Positions 1,269 through 9,786 of a DNA stretch of 64,000 nt are shown piece by piece (positions within the stretch are counted from its first letter, which is position 1; the number at the start of each line of letters is the position of its first letter). The stretch comes from an uncultured Candidatus Saccharibacteria bacterium (GTDB lineage: Bacteria > Patescibacteriota > Saccharimonadia > Saccharimonadales > Saccharimonadaceae). The DNA lies in contig CAZLAF010000002.1 in the NCBI GenBank assembly GCA_964557445.1, positions 9,695-73,694 on the forward strand, read 5' to 3'. Made by a program: the position numbers and the translations under genes. The notes under the pieces were generated by a model. That model saw only the letters and a list, made by a program, of their open reading frames with translations. It was not told where the DNA came from and searched no databases.

Positions 1269-2279
1269 CTAGAGCCGGAATCCACCGCTTCCACGAAGTG
1301 ACTTGCGACGACTGCGCTTGCGGATGAGGAATATGATACCGACAATCAACAGCACAACAACTATAGCGGAGATGATAGCGATGATAATGACCATCTGTGG
1401 GATCACCCAGAATGACTGCTCTACCTCAACAGTCTGGTTTTTCTTTCCGTAGGTAAAAGTAGCATTGACGGTGTATTGCCCAAAACTACCGATATTTTTC
1501 AGGGGCACGTCCCAGCGTCGGGCGCTATCAGGAAGAATCATATCGCGGTTACTTGTAGCGCTATTGAAATCATATTCGTACACCACTTTGTCACCCGAGC
1601 GAACGGTCAGCTTGCCAAATGGCGCAACCTGCACGTTACTCTTGCTTTCAAACCGAACAGTTGCCTGTAGATCGTTTGAGCTTTGGAAATATGTACCACT
1701 TTTACCGCCTTGCTGGATGGCAAACTCGGTCAACGTCAGTTTTTCGACTGTTTCTCCGGGTACCGACAGTAACATAAGCGACGCCACACTACCGCTCATA
1801 TTTACCTGAGCACCGCCGTCTGGATCAGCTGGCGCAAAACGTACGGCACCAAAATATCCACCAGCTTGAGCTGATTTTGGCACAGACACTACTACCTCTA
1901 CCACCTGCATCTTGCCTGCTGGGATTGTAACGTCTTTAAAAGGCTTCATGAAGCGCTTGAGGCTATGTGTTGGAGCAAACTCATCGGCATCGAGTATCAG
2001 CGCAGGAGTACCGCGCTCATCTCCTGCTATAAAATCATTTGCAATTGGACGTACTGTAATAGGCCTGTCCGTTAGGTTTGTCACGTAAGCTTTAACGGTC
2101 TTTGTCTCACCCGGCTGAATCTCGATGTCGCTACGGACAGGAGACACCTTAAGCACGTTTGTGGCGGCATTTGCTCCACTAGACTGCGCAAAGGCTTGTG
2201 AGCCCAGCAAAACACTCAGCACCAAGATAGCAGCCAATGCCGCAAAAATATTCAATCGGATATGTTTTTTTATTAACAC
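1269..2279 (-). CDS. membrane-anchored cell-surface protein, DUF916/DUF3324-like (CscA / WxL-interacting type); paralog of 4644..5696
   Basis: GTG start with an AGAGGG SD. Layout is signal peptide, two beta-rich domains (motifs GGYFGAVRF and GQYTVNATFTYG), a C-terminal TM helix and a basic tail RKRSRRK. Confidence 0.6.
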   Translation of the reverse strand: MLIKKHIRLNIFAALAAILVLSVLLGSQAFAQSSGANAATNVLKVSPVRSDIEIQPGETKTVKAYVTNLTDRPITVRPIANDFIAGDERGTPALILDADEFAPTHSLKRFMKPFKDVTIPAGKMQVVEVVVSVPKSAQAGGYFGAVRFAPADPDGGAQVNMSGSVASLMLLSVPGETVEKLTLTEFAIQQGGKSGTYFQSSNDLQATVRFESKSNVQVAPFGKLTVRSGDKVVYEYDFNSATSNRDMILPDSARRWDVPLKNIGSFGQYTVNATFTYGKKNQTVEVEQSFWVIPQMVIIIAIISAIVVVLLIVGIIFLIRKRSRRKSLRGSGGFRL

Positions 2280-2307
2280 ACTGTTCCCTCTTTACGTAGT
2301 TACAACC

Positions 2308-2316
2308 ATGATAACA
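2308..2316 (-). promoter_or_regulatory. extended -10 element TGtTATCAT upstream of 1269..2279
   Basis: The plus strand atgataaca is the reverse complement of TGTTATCAT. It lies 28 nt upstream of the GTG start, just downstream of the terminator hairpin. Confidence 0.4.
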
Positions 2317-2337
2317 GACCTGCTTATGTTTGCAAAC

Positions 2338-2367
2338 AAAGATACCCTCTTATTCGAGGGTATCTTT
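2338..2367 (-). terminator. strong bidirectional rho-independent terminator after 2397..3539
   Basis: Perfect 9-bp stem GATACCCTC / GAGGGTATC (2341-2349 and 2356-2364) with a 6-nt loop. A/T runs flank it on both sides (UUUGUUUG on the minus-strand RNA). Confidence 0.8.
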
Positions 2368-2396
2368 TGTATCTAAGAATAGTATCAACTATGTAT

Positions 2397-6971: not shown

Positions 6972-8813
6972 CTAGTACTGTGGAGCTGCGATGTAGTTGA
7001 TCTTGGTAGTGTAGATACCAGCTGGTGTGGTGGCTTCGATGTTAGCTATATAGCGCATCTTACCAGTCACACAGTTGACCACCTGATTGTCCTGTGACGC
7101 AAGCGGTACAGGTACTAGCATCGAGGTAGGATCAAAGGCAAATGCTGTGTTGATCATATCGTCGGCTGGGTCTCCTCCTGCAACTATGTAGTCAGAGTTG
7201 ACGATACCAGCTCCACGATCATACTGTGCGTGCGGCTGAAGTGGCCACAAGCGAGGTGAGTGCCAGCTTGCGTTTGCACCAAGGTTTGAGATACCTGCAG
7301 CTGTTACGCTTGAATGGACGCCTGCAGCCAATGGGTTAGCAAGCCCAGCCGCTGCATTGTCGGCACCATTTTCATATACCTTACCAGTCGATCGCTCAAT
7401 ATTATAATTGACTGGGAATACATGAGTAGGGTTTGTATTAGCTACTGGATCCCATAGTGGGTCATTGGCAGTAAGTGTACCGTTAGCCAGTGCCAGGCCA
7501 AACTGTTCGCTACCAACCTGCGGTGCTTCTGCGGTAGCACCAATAGGCTTGATTTCGTCTTCAACTGTATTGGTAAGTGTGTTGCCACTGTAGTACACAG
7601 TTGCACCAGCACTTGAGTTGGAGCTAAGTCGCCAATAGCTGTGACCACTATAGGTCTTGTCAGTTGCTAGCGAGAACTCGCTGTCTGAATCACCTAATTG
7701 GATACGGTTTCGTGGCTCAGTACTACTAGGCGTACCGTCCATCCTGGTTACGATAGCTTCACATGGATTATGGACAGTGTGATTATTTGCAGTGTGTAAC
7801 TGGCTACCTGCAGAACCTGTAGCTTCAAGCGTATAAGGATCTACCGTACCGACGCTAAAGTCCATAGTTTCTAGTACCTTGGTAGTGATCTGGATACCGA
7901 GGTTCATGACGTTGGCTACTGTTACGCCACCATCAATTACGTTTTCACTGGTAAGTGCTTCGTCATCTTTATACGTATTCATACGAACAAAGAACGCGCC
8001 CTCACCAGGGTTGGTAATATAGTTGCTGTTTGTCGCAAAGAATACTACCTTGACACGCTGGCCAGAGAGAAAACCCTGAGTACCAGCTGCATGAGTCAGT
8101 TGGATTTCGTTGTTTTTACCAGTTGCTGTTGGTACACCAGCAGGGCCATCTATAACATTACCGGTTTCGTTGTTTGCAACATCCATTGCCCAGCCAGTAC
8201 TTTGCTTCCATGTGTTATCTGTTTCGTCGAGATAATACACCATGAAGTTGCCGCCTGCTGTCGCTGGCACAGGAACAGATGTCACAACACCGTCAGCGTT
8301 AGTAGTAGATGACGTATCTGAAACACGTGTGGCAAGTGTCGCTTCTGTCGGAGCATCGATAACAACCTCGAGGTCGCTACGCTCTTCTGCAAATTCTGCT
8401 GGGCCGTTAGGGTTACGGGTAAATTCACCCTCTTCATCCTCATCTTCTGTATATTCGTTGTTGCCAGGTGCAACACAGTTTCCAGCTGGAGTTGTACAGT
8501 ACTGGAATGTGATAGCCTGCACCTTATCGGTGCCGCTAGCGGTATTGGTACTTACCTTGAAGTCAAAAGTATTACCAACTTTTTGACCGTTCGCACCGCT
8601 GTTTGGTGGTGCATAAGTAGCATTACCCGAACCGTCTAGATAATCCCAGCCCGGTGCCGAGCTCGAGAGTGTCAAACTACGATCCGTCAACGGATTCAGT
8701 GCATCAGCGAAGACAGCCGGTGCAAATGGGGTAAATGTCGATGCCGCAATGGCAAAGGCAGCCCCAAGCAACGTGCCACGCCGAGCAATTGACTTGAGTG
8801 TATATGTTCTCAT
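6972..8813 (-). CDS. large secreted beta-rich surface protein, W-less WxL-like family
   Basis: Signal peptide ...APAVFADA. Motifs: DRSLTLSSS, an acidic insert EDEDEEGE, VLETMDFSVG, SEQFGLALAN and the C-terminal PAGIYTTKINYIAAPQY. Confidence 0.55.
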   Translation of the reverse strand: MRTYTLKSIARRGTLLGAAFAIAASTFTPFAPAVFADALNPLTDRSLTLSSSAPGWDYLDGSGNATYAPPNSGANGQKVGNTFDFKVSTNTASGTDKVQAITFQYCTTPAGNCVAPGNNEYTEDEDEEGEFTRNPNGPAEFAEERSDLEVVIDAPTEATLATRVSDTSSTTNADGVVTSVPVPATAGGNFMVYYLDETDNTWKQSTGWAMDVANNETGNVIDGPAGVPTATGKNNEIQLTHAAGTQGFLSGQRVKVVFFATNSNYITNPGEGAFFVRMNTYKDDEALTSENVIDGGVTVANVMNLGIQITTKVLETMDFSVGTVDPYTLEATGSAGSQLHTANNHTVHNPCEAIVTRMDGTPSSTEPRNRIQLGDSDSEFSLATDKTYSGHSYWRLSSNSSAGATVYYSGNTLTNTVEDEIKPIGATAEAPQVGSEQFGLALANGTLTANDPLWDPVANTNPTHVFPVNYNIERSTGKVYENGADNAAAGLANPLAAGVHSSVTAAGISNLGANASWHSPRLWPLQPHAQYDRGAGIVNSDYIVAGGDPADDMINTAFAFDPTSMLVPVPLASQDNQVVNCVTGKMRYIANIEATTPAGIYTTKINYIAAPQY

Positions 8814-8869
8814 ATATCTCCTTTATGTTTATTTTTATCACCCTCTACTTTTACAAGGGATACACGCGC

Positions 8870-8878
8870 ATTGTAGCA
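8870..8878 (-). promoter_or_regulatory. extended -10 element TGcTACAAT upstream of 6972..8813
   Basis: The reverse complement of attgtagca is TGCTACAAT. The leader is about 56 nt and ends in an AAGGAG SD. Confidence 0.45.
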
Positions 8879-8950
8879 TTAGCGATATCGTCTGTGCAAT
8901 AGCCTTGTTCGACTTATCCACAACATTTTATCAGGCACCACTAAGCCTTT

Positions 8951-9688
8951 CTAATAAAGAGGTATGACAACTGCGGCAAAGTCGCCAGAGAAGTGTCCTG
9001 CGGGAGTGCGATTGGAGATATTGATAACCATACTGATAGTGTAGTCGGTGCGACCAGACGACATCGTGCTACGAGCTATAACGTCCCCGCTCGCATACAT
9101 GAAACGATTTGGTGTGGCGTAATCTTCGGTTGCTGCACCAAAGCTAAATTCACCCGATGGTACCTGCACAGGATTCTTGCCGACAGTTGGTGTTGTGTTT
9201 GCTACAACATTTATACCAAACTGTTCTGTGCCCGGATCTGAAGCCTCGGGCGTATCAGACGTTGCCAATGCATGATCGCCGTACTTTGGCGGGTCGCCGA
9301 TCACCTGTAGTGTATAGCCTTCGCTCAGATAGTTACGAATCTGGACAGTCGTCTCTTTGGTAGCCGTCTGTTCGGTCGTAAGCACACCTAGGTTTGACTC
9401 GCCTGGCGTTACGACTACTTCGAGTAGCGGCTCGTCCGGCGTCACTGCGCCAAAATTGGCCGTTATCGTATTGCTACTACCGGCACCGCCATCGCCAATA
9501 GAGGCACGCGCGCAATATTCGTCAGAACAACTCTCGAGCGCTGAACCAGAACTAAACTGCGTTTCTGTCGCTTGATAGTTATCTGAGCTCGATGAGACTT
9601 GCGCCAACACCGTCCCCGCCGAACCTATCGTCAACAAGCCTGCCACCAGCAGGGGATAAGTGTATCTCCAAAATCCTCTTTTTCGCAT
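8951..9688 (-). CDS. small secreted surface protein containing only the C-terminal module of the W-less WxL-like family
   Basis: The probable start is MRKRGFW (ATG 9688, with a GAGGTG SD upstream); the ORF track starts at GTG 9712. Motifs: TEQFGINVVANTTPTVG and the C-terminal PAGHFSGDFAAVVIPLY. Confidence 0.5.
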   Translation of the reverse strand: MRKRGFWRYTYPLLVAGLLTIGSAGTVLAQVSSSSDNYQATETQFSSGSALESCSDEYCARASIGDGGAGSSNTITANFGAVTPDEPLLEVVVTPGESNLGVLTTEQTATKETTVQIRNYLSEGYTLQVIGDPPKYGDHALATSDTPEASDPGTEQFGINVVANTTPTVGKNPVQVPSGEFSFGAATEDYATPNRFMYASGDVIARSTMSSGRTDYTISMVINISNRTPAGHFSGDFAAVVIPLY

Positions 9689-9786
9689 AAGCTTACTACA
9701 CCTCATTATCACCTATGCCAAGCACTAGCGTCAAGCCGACAAGTATAGTAAGCTAGGCGTAAGCATAATTCACAAAATGACAACTC

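Follow-up and report, generated by a model that had tools for sequence, protein, structure and literature searches.

A seven-gene island of a Saccharimonadia bacterium as a very probable ortholog of the pam pilus operon, with anchored chaperone-like proteins related to the WxLIP family

The seven-gene island and its match to the pam operon

We analyzed a 64,000-nucleotide stretch of DNA from an uncultured Candidatus Saccharibacteria bacterium (assembly GCA_964557445.1, contig CAZLAF010000002.1, positions 9,695 to 73,694 of the forward strand). This whole stretch is referred to below as the window, and all positions are counted within it. At 1269-9712 the window carries seven consecutive open reading frames (ORFs), all on the minus strand, and a hydropathy heuristic found an N-terminal hydrophobic, signal-like segment in each of the seven products. 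In three of them (1269-2279, 4644-5696 and 3662-4741) a hydropathy scan located a C-terminal transmembrane helix followed by a basic tail. The genes are given here in the order in which they occur and are named after their apparent counterparts in the pam operon of Candidatus (Ca.) Mycosynbacter amalyticus JR1; a promoter-like site and the divergent neighbor are added at the end of the list.

8951..9712, minus strand: PamT-like tip pilin, one C-terminal pilin domain and a short N-terminal segment (NF058579, NF058581)
6972..8813, minus strand: PamA-like large major pilin, 613 amino acids, mature protein ~60.8 kDa, 4 Cys (NF058581, position in gene order)
5772..6872, minus strand: PamE-like two-domain pilin (NF058581, blastp to PamB-like and PamT-like)
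4644..5696, minus strand: PamD-like membrane-anchored chaperone, with signal peptide, two beta-rich domains, C-terminal transmembrane helix and basic tail (paralogy with 1269-2279)
3662..4591 (ORF to 4741), minus strand: PamR-like protein, RbmA-like plus PKD domain, membrane-anchored (NF058578, PKD)
2397..3539, minus strand: PamB-like small major pilin, 380 amino acids, mature protein ~34.4 kDa, 6 Cys (blastp to PamE-like, position in gene order)
1269..2279, minus strand: PamC-like membrane-anchored chaperone of the WxLIP (DUF916) family (PF06030, hhalign, AlphaFold2/Foldseek)
9705..9734, minus strand: promoter-like site 5' of the first gene of the operon, TTGACG-18-GATAAT, 10/12 positions, a consensus match only
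9787..10815, plus strand: divergent 342-residue "tail fibre-like" neighbor with an acidic N-terminus, a transmembrane segment and a repeat-rich beta region

The naming rests in the first place on curated family models. The product of 3662-4741 matches the NCBIfam equivalog NF058578 (CPR_pilus_PamR) at 382.7 bits against a cut-off of 300, over residues 64-351 and the whole profile, and that of 8951-9712 matches the equivalog NF058579 (CPR_pilus_PamT) at 292.7 bits against a cut-off of 240. NF058581, the model of the C-terminal domain of Pam pilins from the candidate phyla radiation (CPR), has a cut-off of 55 and is matched by the PamT-like, PamE-like and PamA-like proteins at 153.3, 152.6 and 68 bits, respectively. 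Further, Pfam PKD_4 (29.3 bits, gathering score 27) and PKD (27.2 bits, gathering score 23.5) both lie in 3662-4741.

The system that these models describe is the subject of a 2026 bioRxiv preprint (10.64898/2026.03.03.709456). There, PamA and PamB are reported as the thin-filament pilins of Ca. M. amalyticus, resolved by cryo-electron microscopy (cryo-EM), joined by donor-strand exchange and ranking 2nd and 9th in protein abundance. PamC and PamD are described as PapD/FimC-like chaperones with a C-terminal transmembrane helix, PamE as a third two-domain pilin, PamT as a single-domain tip pilin and PamR as an RbmA-like, membrane-anchored protein, and the family is reported as restricted to CPR. 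The JR1 operon has the accession order C, B, R, D, E, A, T, with a tail fibre-like gene and ATP synthase genes as conserved neighbors (10.64898/2026.03.03.709456); here, the order is PamT-A-E-D-R-B-C, flanked by the divergent tail-fibre-like gene and by atpC/atpD/atpG/atpA. Moreover, the Cys counts of the PamA-like (4) and PamB-like (6) proteins fit the two and three disulfide pairs given in the preprint for PamA and PamB.

An initial annotation of this DNA, made from the letters alone, had described seven consecutive minus-strand genes for secreted proteins, including a PKD anchor, and had been aware of no description of such a system in CPR-like genomes. The gene set stands once some starts are corrected, and so does the PKD domain; the last statement is out of date. 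Since NCBIfam models name its genes, and since gene order and flanks match those of the pam operon in M. amalyticus, the island is not a new system: it is already known from the preprint and from the curated models NF058578, NF058579 and NF058581. We thus regard the seven genes as very probably an ortholog of the pam operon, encoding an usher-less, chaperone-assisted pilus of a Saccharimonadia (CPR) bacterium, built on the cell's single membrane.

The arrangement recurs in related loci. When metagenome contigs were scanned, a PamC-family alignment serving as query, 80 loci were obtained, and gene order was checked in the 27 that are at least 15 kb long. The order PamT-A-E-D-R-B-C was kept in every one of them (27/27); all seven genes are present in 25, and the remaining two begin at PamA, at a contig end, with the other six genes in order. 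Of the 27 loci, 24 have the divergent tail-fibre-like gene adjoining the PamT gene, and two of the three that do not end too soon upstream to include it; in related loci the operon is usually preceded by this gene together with atpC/atpD. From the constant order it follows that the chaperone and pilin classes, that is, the anchored and the soluble proteins whose co-occurrence the initial annotation had proposed to check, occur together consistently. Homologues number 1459 for the PamC-like and 1086 for the PamA-like protein, and PamT homologues form 412 clusters at 50% identity among 1.84 billion representatives. Few of the homologues are named, those that are belonging to Ca. Saccharimonadales and Ca. 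Microsaccharimonas, and the best are 65-71% identical.

Several points weigh against the identification. The PamB-like protein scores 34.8 bits with NF058581 (E 1.6e-8), which is below the cut-off of 55, and the PamD-like protein matches Pfam WxLIP_PGBD at 17.7 bits (E 0.0037), below the gathering score. Mature sizes differ from those in JR1, with 60.8 vs. 55.3 kDa for PamA-like and 34.4 vs. 38.7 kDa for PamB-like; judging by these sizes, by the identity of 65-71% to the nearest relatives and by the lack of JR1 names among the top matches, the window probably does not come from JR1. The comparison with M. amalyticus was made through NCBIfam models, gene order and the published description. Finally, chaperone function, subunit order and termination by PamR are AlphaFold predictions in a preprint that is not peer reviewed (10.64898/2026.03.03.709456). 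A search of PDB sequences with the PamA-like and PamB-like proteins and a PamT-family profile gave no match, in a copy that lacks the preprint entries 25PZ and 25QA.

Several gene starts require comment. The 3662-4741 ORF probably starts at M51 (4591), the 8951-9712 ORF at M9 (9688) and the 5772-6872 ORF at M22 or M26 (6809 or 6797); in the public gene calls, the products of 8951-9712 and 3662-4741 have 245 and 309 residues, respectively. The hydropathy scan placed the signal-like segment of the PamE-like protein at ORF residues 24-53, and the transmembrane segments of the PamD-like and PamR-like proteins at residues 304-337 and 313-337. The public call for the PamE-like protein has 281 residues and begins at M86, so that both the signal peptide and the mature N-terminus, which is conserved, are cut off, and the NCBI version of the PamC-like protein (317 residues) starts inside the signal peptide. 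Certain public calls for the PamE-like, PamR-like and PamC-like proteins thus look truncated, and as a result automated surveys would miss the secreted nature of these proteins.

Anchored chaperone-like proteins and the WxLIP family

The PamC-like and PamD-like proteins are paralogs that share 28% identity over 319 residues (blastp E 2.7e-27). The PamC-like protein matches Pfam PF06030 (WxLIP_PGBD / DUF916) at 31.4 bits against a gathering score of 27.3, and most of its 120 closest homologues carry the same family. PF11797 (WxLIP_HBD / DUF3324), which covers the second domain of WxLIP proteins, gave no Pfam match at E<=1; the profile-profile alignment described below still spans that domain.

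For comparison, 96 Firmicutes loci were retrieved with a nucleotide pattern that encodes NQxDKxxxYFDLK, the WxLIP motif, and from these we took 77 WxLIP, 102 small WxL and 38 large WxL proteins, examples of which were verified by Pfam; the control proteins match PF13731 at 220-237 bits. When the PamC family was aligned with the Firmicutes WxLIP profile by hhalign, the match had a probability of 98.3% and an E-value of 1.4e-14 over 221 columns, covering both Ig-like domains (residues 40-280 against 33-287). Its score was 106.5, as compared with no more than 25 for reversed, column-shuffled and unrelated profiles. The PamC-like protein lacks NQIDKxxxYFDLK, the conserved N-terminal motif of WxLIP, and an 11-residue gap in the hhalign alignment falls exactly there.

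Structural comparison led to the same family. A single-sequence AlphaFold2 model of the PamC-like protein (pLDDT 57) was set aside, and the model used was built from a 61-sequence alignment (pLDDT 85.6, pTM 0.72); it consists of two beta-sandwich domains and a transmembrane helix. The top three Foldseek matches in PDB are the Enterococcus faecium WxLIP structures 9i1y and 9i25, the latter being WxLIP bound to a long WxL protein, with E-values of ~1e-10 and TM-scores (template modeling) of 0.40-0.52. Next come the chaperones CfaA, DraB, Caf1M, FimC, CsuC and SafB, with E-values of 1e-8 to 1e-6. A PamC-family profile hidden Markov model (HMM) searched against PDB sequences did not reach EfmWxLIP1, though it is present there, and returned nothing other than noise from the transmembrane helix; hence the link between PamC and WxLIP needs profile-profile or structural comparison to be seen.

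The resemblance of the two anchored paralogs to DUF916/DUF3324 proteins, suggested in the initial annotation, is accordingly borne out as to DUF916/WxLIP by PF06030, hhalign and Foldseek. The homology of PamC with WxLIP is well supported in itself, and WxLIP is a closer relative of the PamC-like protein than the chaperones of chaperone-usher systems are. The WxLIP-like description of the initial annotation and the PapD-like one of the preprint are therefore both correct.

Targeted literature searches found, within the library searched, no published statement tying Pam chaperones to the WxLIP family. The preprint (10.64898/2026.03.03.709456) makes no mention of WxL, DUF916 or DUF3324, and the 2023 paper on WxLIP, in which the proposed roles are to bind peptidoglycan, to bind the host and to insert into its membrane, mentions neither chaperones nor CPR. 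That paper predicts a WxLIP hairpin inserting into WxL. More generally, the WxL papers predict a beta-sandwich of WxL that is completed by a strand from WxLIP, and a possible rearrangement of the strand at the WxL N-terminus, and on these grounds a donor-strand logic common to both systems is a reasonable and testable hypothesis. We go further only tentatively: it is possible, at somewhat less than even chances, that PamC and PamD are true members of WxLIP (DUF916-DUF3324-transmembrane) and that the Pam pilus and the WxL/Csc clusters represent two branches of one ancient, usher-less pathway of monoderms that works with anchored chaperones. Homology or functional equivalence of the partner proteins, Pam pilins and WxL, is a hypothesis only and is not supported by the sequence comparisons that follow.

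The pilin family, a proposed assembly route and the surroundings

The four soluble proteins form one paralogous family. The PamB-like protein (2397-3539) aligns with the PamE-like protein (5772-6872) over the full length at a blastp E-value of 1.2e-13, and the latter with the PamT-like protein (8951-9712) at 1.8e-18; the PamA-like protein (6972-8813) has weak pairwise similarity and is joined to the other pilins mainly via NF058581. The motif [ED]R[SG]xx[LM][SH]SS constitutes the mature N-terminus of the PamA-like, PamB-like and PamE-like proteins and is not found in the PamT-like protein. VLE[ST] and F[CS]V boxes lie at residues 184-192, 193-206 and 313-321, with a longer spacing in 5772-6872, and both [QK]FG[IL] and the C-terminal P(A)GxY... 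strand are present in all four pilins (4/4).

To obtain a conservation profile, 120 homologues of the 613-residue PamA-like protein were aligned. Its peaks fall on the mature N-terminus (36-52), the linker (294-326), residues 387-417 (strands of the C-terminal domain), the QFG box and the C-terminal strand (578-613). The family signatures noted in the initial annotation are present where it placed them and coincide with these peaks, which means that the same segments are conserved across the 120 homologues.

Two further features of the pilins stand apart from this. The mature N-terminus of the PamA family (DALNPLTDRSLTLSS, residues 36-52) is as conserved as the linker, at 0.16 vs. 0.15 bits of entropy per column; the motif may form part of a subunit interface or a chaperone contact, and it goes without mention in the available part of the preprint (10.64898/2026.03.03.709456). 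The PamT-like protein carries, at residues ~40-90, ahead of the pilin C-terminal domain, three copies of S-x-x-Y-x-[AV]...G, for which the consensus in the PamT family is SxSxxYxVxE..FG, SxxYxAxxSxG and SxxYxAxAGF. In the preprint, PamT is said to consist of one truncated Ig-like domain that lacks a linker strand.

That these pilins are WxL domains, as the label "WxL-like" in the initial annotation implied, had to be rejected at the sequence level, because four hhalign set-ups as well as the greedy and global modes stayed at background. Profiles of the PamT family (95 sequences) and of the Pam C-terminal domain (116 sequences) were compared with small and large WxL, and the P-values of 0.0056-0.48 were in the same range as those of unrelated controls, the positive controls reaching 3.9e-25 and 3e-64. 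Pfam WxL (PF13731) had no match at E<=1 in any of the seven proteins, and a PamT-family HMM did not find the WxL chain of 9i25 among PDB sequences. Nor are there dual W-x-L motifs: Trp is missing altogether from the mature PamT-like protein and from the C-terminal strand, and occurs once each in the PamB-like and PamE-like proteins. The best alignment of pilin and WxL, itself non-significant, covers the terminal strand alone, i.e. 12-14 columns with P-x-G-x-Y and alternating hydrophobic residues. This likeness is a lead and not evidence of homology, the pattern being common also in the last strand of chaperone-usher pilins. Of the profile searches that had been proposed along with the WxL-like label, those with PF06030 and PKD were thus positive and that with WxL negative, and DUF3324 had no direct Pfam match.

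These results bear on a reading in which no polymer is made and the WxLIP-like anchors bind their soluble partners one-to-one as cell-wall adhesins, an arrangement that others have suggested for WxL clusters in Enterococcus, Listeria and Lactiplantibacillus. In its favor, the PamC-like protein belongs to the WxLIP family by Pfam, hhalign and Foldseek, and the logic of the cluster is alike: a WxLIP is anchored, one partner is small and has a single domain, and the larger partners carry an N-terminal domain as well. However, neither Pfam nor profile-profile comparison finds a WxL domain, dual W-x-L motifs are missing, the orthologous PamA and PamB have been resolved as long filaments, and conservation is highest in the linker strand, as an exchange from subunit to subunit predicts. 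We consider such a Csc/WxL-type surface complex improbable.

Less probable still, and hardly to be credited, is a degenerate classical chaperone-usher system (Pap/Fim or archaic/SCPU) acquired from a diderm bacterium. Such an origin would agree with the Foldseek matches to CfaA, DraB, Caf1M, FimC, CsuC and SafB (E 1e-8 to 1e-6) and with the C-terminal strand, which is like the last strand of chaperone-usher pilins; the initial annotation had pointed to this likeness, and the preprint (10.64898/2026.03.03.709456) draws a similar comparison with Pap/Fim. Yet no match to PapD_N, PapD_C, usher or fimbrial Pfam families was found at E<=1 in the nine island and flanking proteins, the island holds no usher-sized gene, the chaperones are anchored by a transmembrane helix and the pilins have an extra N-terminal domain. 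Moreover, the best structural match is WxLIP, and the preprint reports the family as CPR-restricted. A chance run of unrelated secreted proteins, for which nothing speaks except that three of the seven proteins lack a Pfam annotation, is already refuted by synteny (order kept in 27/27 loci, all seven genes in 25), paralogy (E 1e-13 to 1e-27) and matches to dedicated NCBIfam models, and is the least probable of all.

For the pam ortholog, the route of assembly with the best support is the one proposed in the preprint (10.64898/2026.03.03.709456). All seven products would be exported by Sec. The PamC-like and PamD-like proteins would serve as two-domain, Ig-like chaperones held at the membrane by the C-terminal helix, each lending a beta-strand to the C-terminal Ig-like domain of a pilin, which is incomplete by itself and would thereby be stabilized. 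The chaperone strand would then be swapped for the strand in the linker between the N-terminal and C-terminal domains (the VLE[ST]..F[CS]V box) of the next pilin. In the resulting filament the PamT-like protein would cap the tip, the PamB-like and PamA-like proteins would form a long shaft and the PamE-like protein would lie proximal to the anchor, with growth ended by the N-terminal strand of PamR, which would tie the filament to the membrane. Filaments of this kind could reach out to a host bacterium.

The steps of this route differ in what they rest on. Gene identities, paralogy, architecture, chaperone fold, synteny and conservation pattern were observed at this locus. Filament structure and donor-strand exchange have been shown for PamA and PamB of M. 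amalyticus only, and would apply to the window proteins by analogy. Chaperone action, subunit order, the role of PamR and contact with a host are inferred or predicted, largely from models. In the preprint (10.64898/2026.03.03.709456), the donated strand is the linker between the two domains; the VLE[ST]..F[CS]V box, to judge from its position at the domain boundary, is probably this donated linker. The conserved C-terminal strand, in which the initial annotation proposed to look for an interface, more likely belongs to the acceptor domain than is donated, possibly lining the groove as in chaperone-usher pilins. On the chaperone side, the AlphaFold2 model of the PamC-like protein shows a strand pair, 140-150 and 166-173, with a low-confidence loop (151-165) in between. 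We infer that the strand after this loop is a candidate chaperone donor strand, because, in the alignment, 140-173 falls on the matching hairpin region of WxLIP, possibly the hairpin of the 2023 WxLIP prediction.

A C-terminal LPXTG motif occurs in none of the seven proteins (0/7), and no Pfam match to sortase was found in the nine island and flanking proteins, the remaining window not having been screened for sortase. The same absences had been noted at the outset, together with the idea of a sortase-independent fibre assembled by strand complementation on the anchored proteins, which was essentially right in view of the cryo-EM of the orthologous system. A sequence-only reader thus recovered the correct logic of the system from raw DNA.

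Around the operon, a tRNA-Asn(GTT) gene lies at 1126-1200 on the minus strand, 69 bases downstream of the PamC-like stop, with a separate promoter-like site of its own (1251-1223). After the tRNA gene comes a terminator-like hairpin at 996-1019 (minus strand) with 10 pairs and a T run, the strongest of the region, which the operon and the tRNA gene may share. The tail-fibre-like protein (9787-10815) has one transmembrane segment and a repeat region rich in Gly, Thr, Ser and Asn; it gave no significant Pfam or PHROG match, and a weak bactofilin-like match at E 0.017. Just past the ATP synthase genes, 17339-20005 (plus strand) encodes an 888-residue protein with a CBM_4_9 module, as annotated in a matching public contig.

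Farther on, the G+C content is 0.38-0.43 over ~40000-58000 of the window vs. 0.46-0.53 over 1-40000. The former region holds a surface-glycan cluster with a nucleotidyl transferase, several GT2 and GT1 glycosyltransferases, a UDP-glucose dehydrogenase-like gene, an epimerase/dehydratase, the ATPase of a Wzt-type ABC transporter and, at 42646-44394, a fusion of GtrA with PMT_2 (protein mannosyltransferase-like). According to the preprint (10.64898/2026.03.03.709456), Ser356 of PamA bears an unidentified modification. That this cluster might glycosylate the pilins is pure speculation.

Comparison with known systems

With the Pam system of M. amalyticus JR1 the window shares the seven-gene order, the tail-fibre-like and ATP synthase flanks, the counts of Cys pairs, two-domain pilins, membrane-anchored chaperones and the lack of both usher and sortase. 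It differs in a larger PamA-like and a smaller PamB-like protein, and in a PamB-like protein that falls below the NF058581 cut-off. As a discovery, the locus is one more ortholog of a published pilus system and nothing further. What novelty remains is the recognition of Pam chaperones as relatives of WxLIP, the WxL-interacting protein family known from Firmicutes, which builds a bridge between two literatures.

The chaperone-usher pili (Pap, Fim, CFA/I, Caf1, Csu) have in common with Pam a two-domain Ig-like chaperone, an incomplete Ig-like pilin domain, donor-strand complementation and exchange, and subunits that follow one another in order as tip, shaft and terminator. In contrast to them, Pam has no usher and no outer membrane, its chaperones are anchored in the membrane, its donor strand is an internal linker and not an N-terminal extension, and its pilins have an additional N-terminal beta-sandwich. 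Further, Pam filaments are extended whereas those of chaperone-usher systems are coiled, and by sequence the Pam proteins have no membership in the Pfam chaperone-usher families.

The WxL/Csc clusters of Lactobacillales and Bacillales resemble Pam in an anchored protein of the same family, whose signal peptide is followed by two Ig-like domains at roughly right angles and, at the C-terminus, by a transmembrane helix, and a strand of which is predicted to complete the beta-sandwich of the partner; in attachment that is independent of sortase; and in partners of two kinds, one small and single-domain, the others larger and bearing additional N-terminal domains. The differences are that the Pam partners are not WxL by any sequence test, that NQIDKxxxYFDLK is absent in the PamC-like protein, and that WxL/Csc clusters are described as peptidoglycan-bound adhesion complexes and not as filaments. 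In addition, the window has two chaperone paralogs and a dedicated PKD/RbmA-like anchor, and, unlike canonical WxLIP clusters, no adjacent WxL genes (PF13731 in 0/7 proteins).

The WxL clusters themselves are richer than their minimal description. Several of those from enterococci and Vagococcus contain three or four tandem small WxL genes (L005 3797-7951, L022 408-6147, L072 32-7182), and right after the WxLIP gene these clusters carry a conserved membrane protein of ~260 residues with hydrophobic-looking N- and C-termini:

L005 3797-4597, L022 5347-6147, L044 3748-4530, L072 6394-7182: ~260-residue membrane protein

Tandem WxL genes and this protein together mean that such clusters have more components than the minimum of one WxLIP and two WxL, as is the case in the Pam operon.

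WxLIP has already been crystallized together with a WxL partner (9i1y, 9i25). If the two systems do share one pathway, WxLIP would be a donor-strand chaperone and not a scaffold for binding peptidoglycan or host, and WxL proteins would be subunits open to exchange, which on enterococci, listeriae and lactobacilli may assemble into short fibres or ordered heteromers. If the partner domains, too, should prove related, the WxL loci that are linked to virulence in Enterococcus and Listeria would have to be reread as donor-strand assembly systems, and the Pam pilus would gain genetically tractable model organisms.

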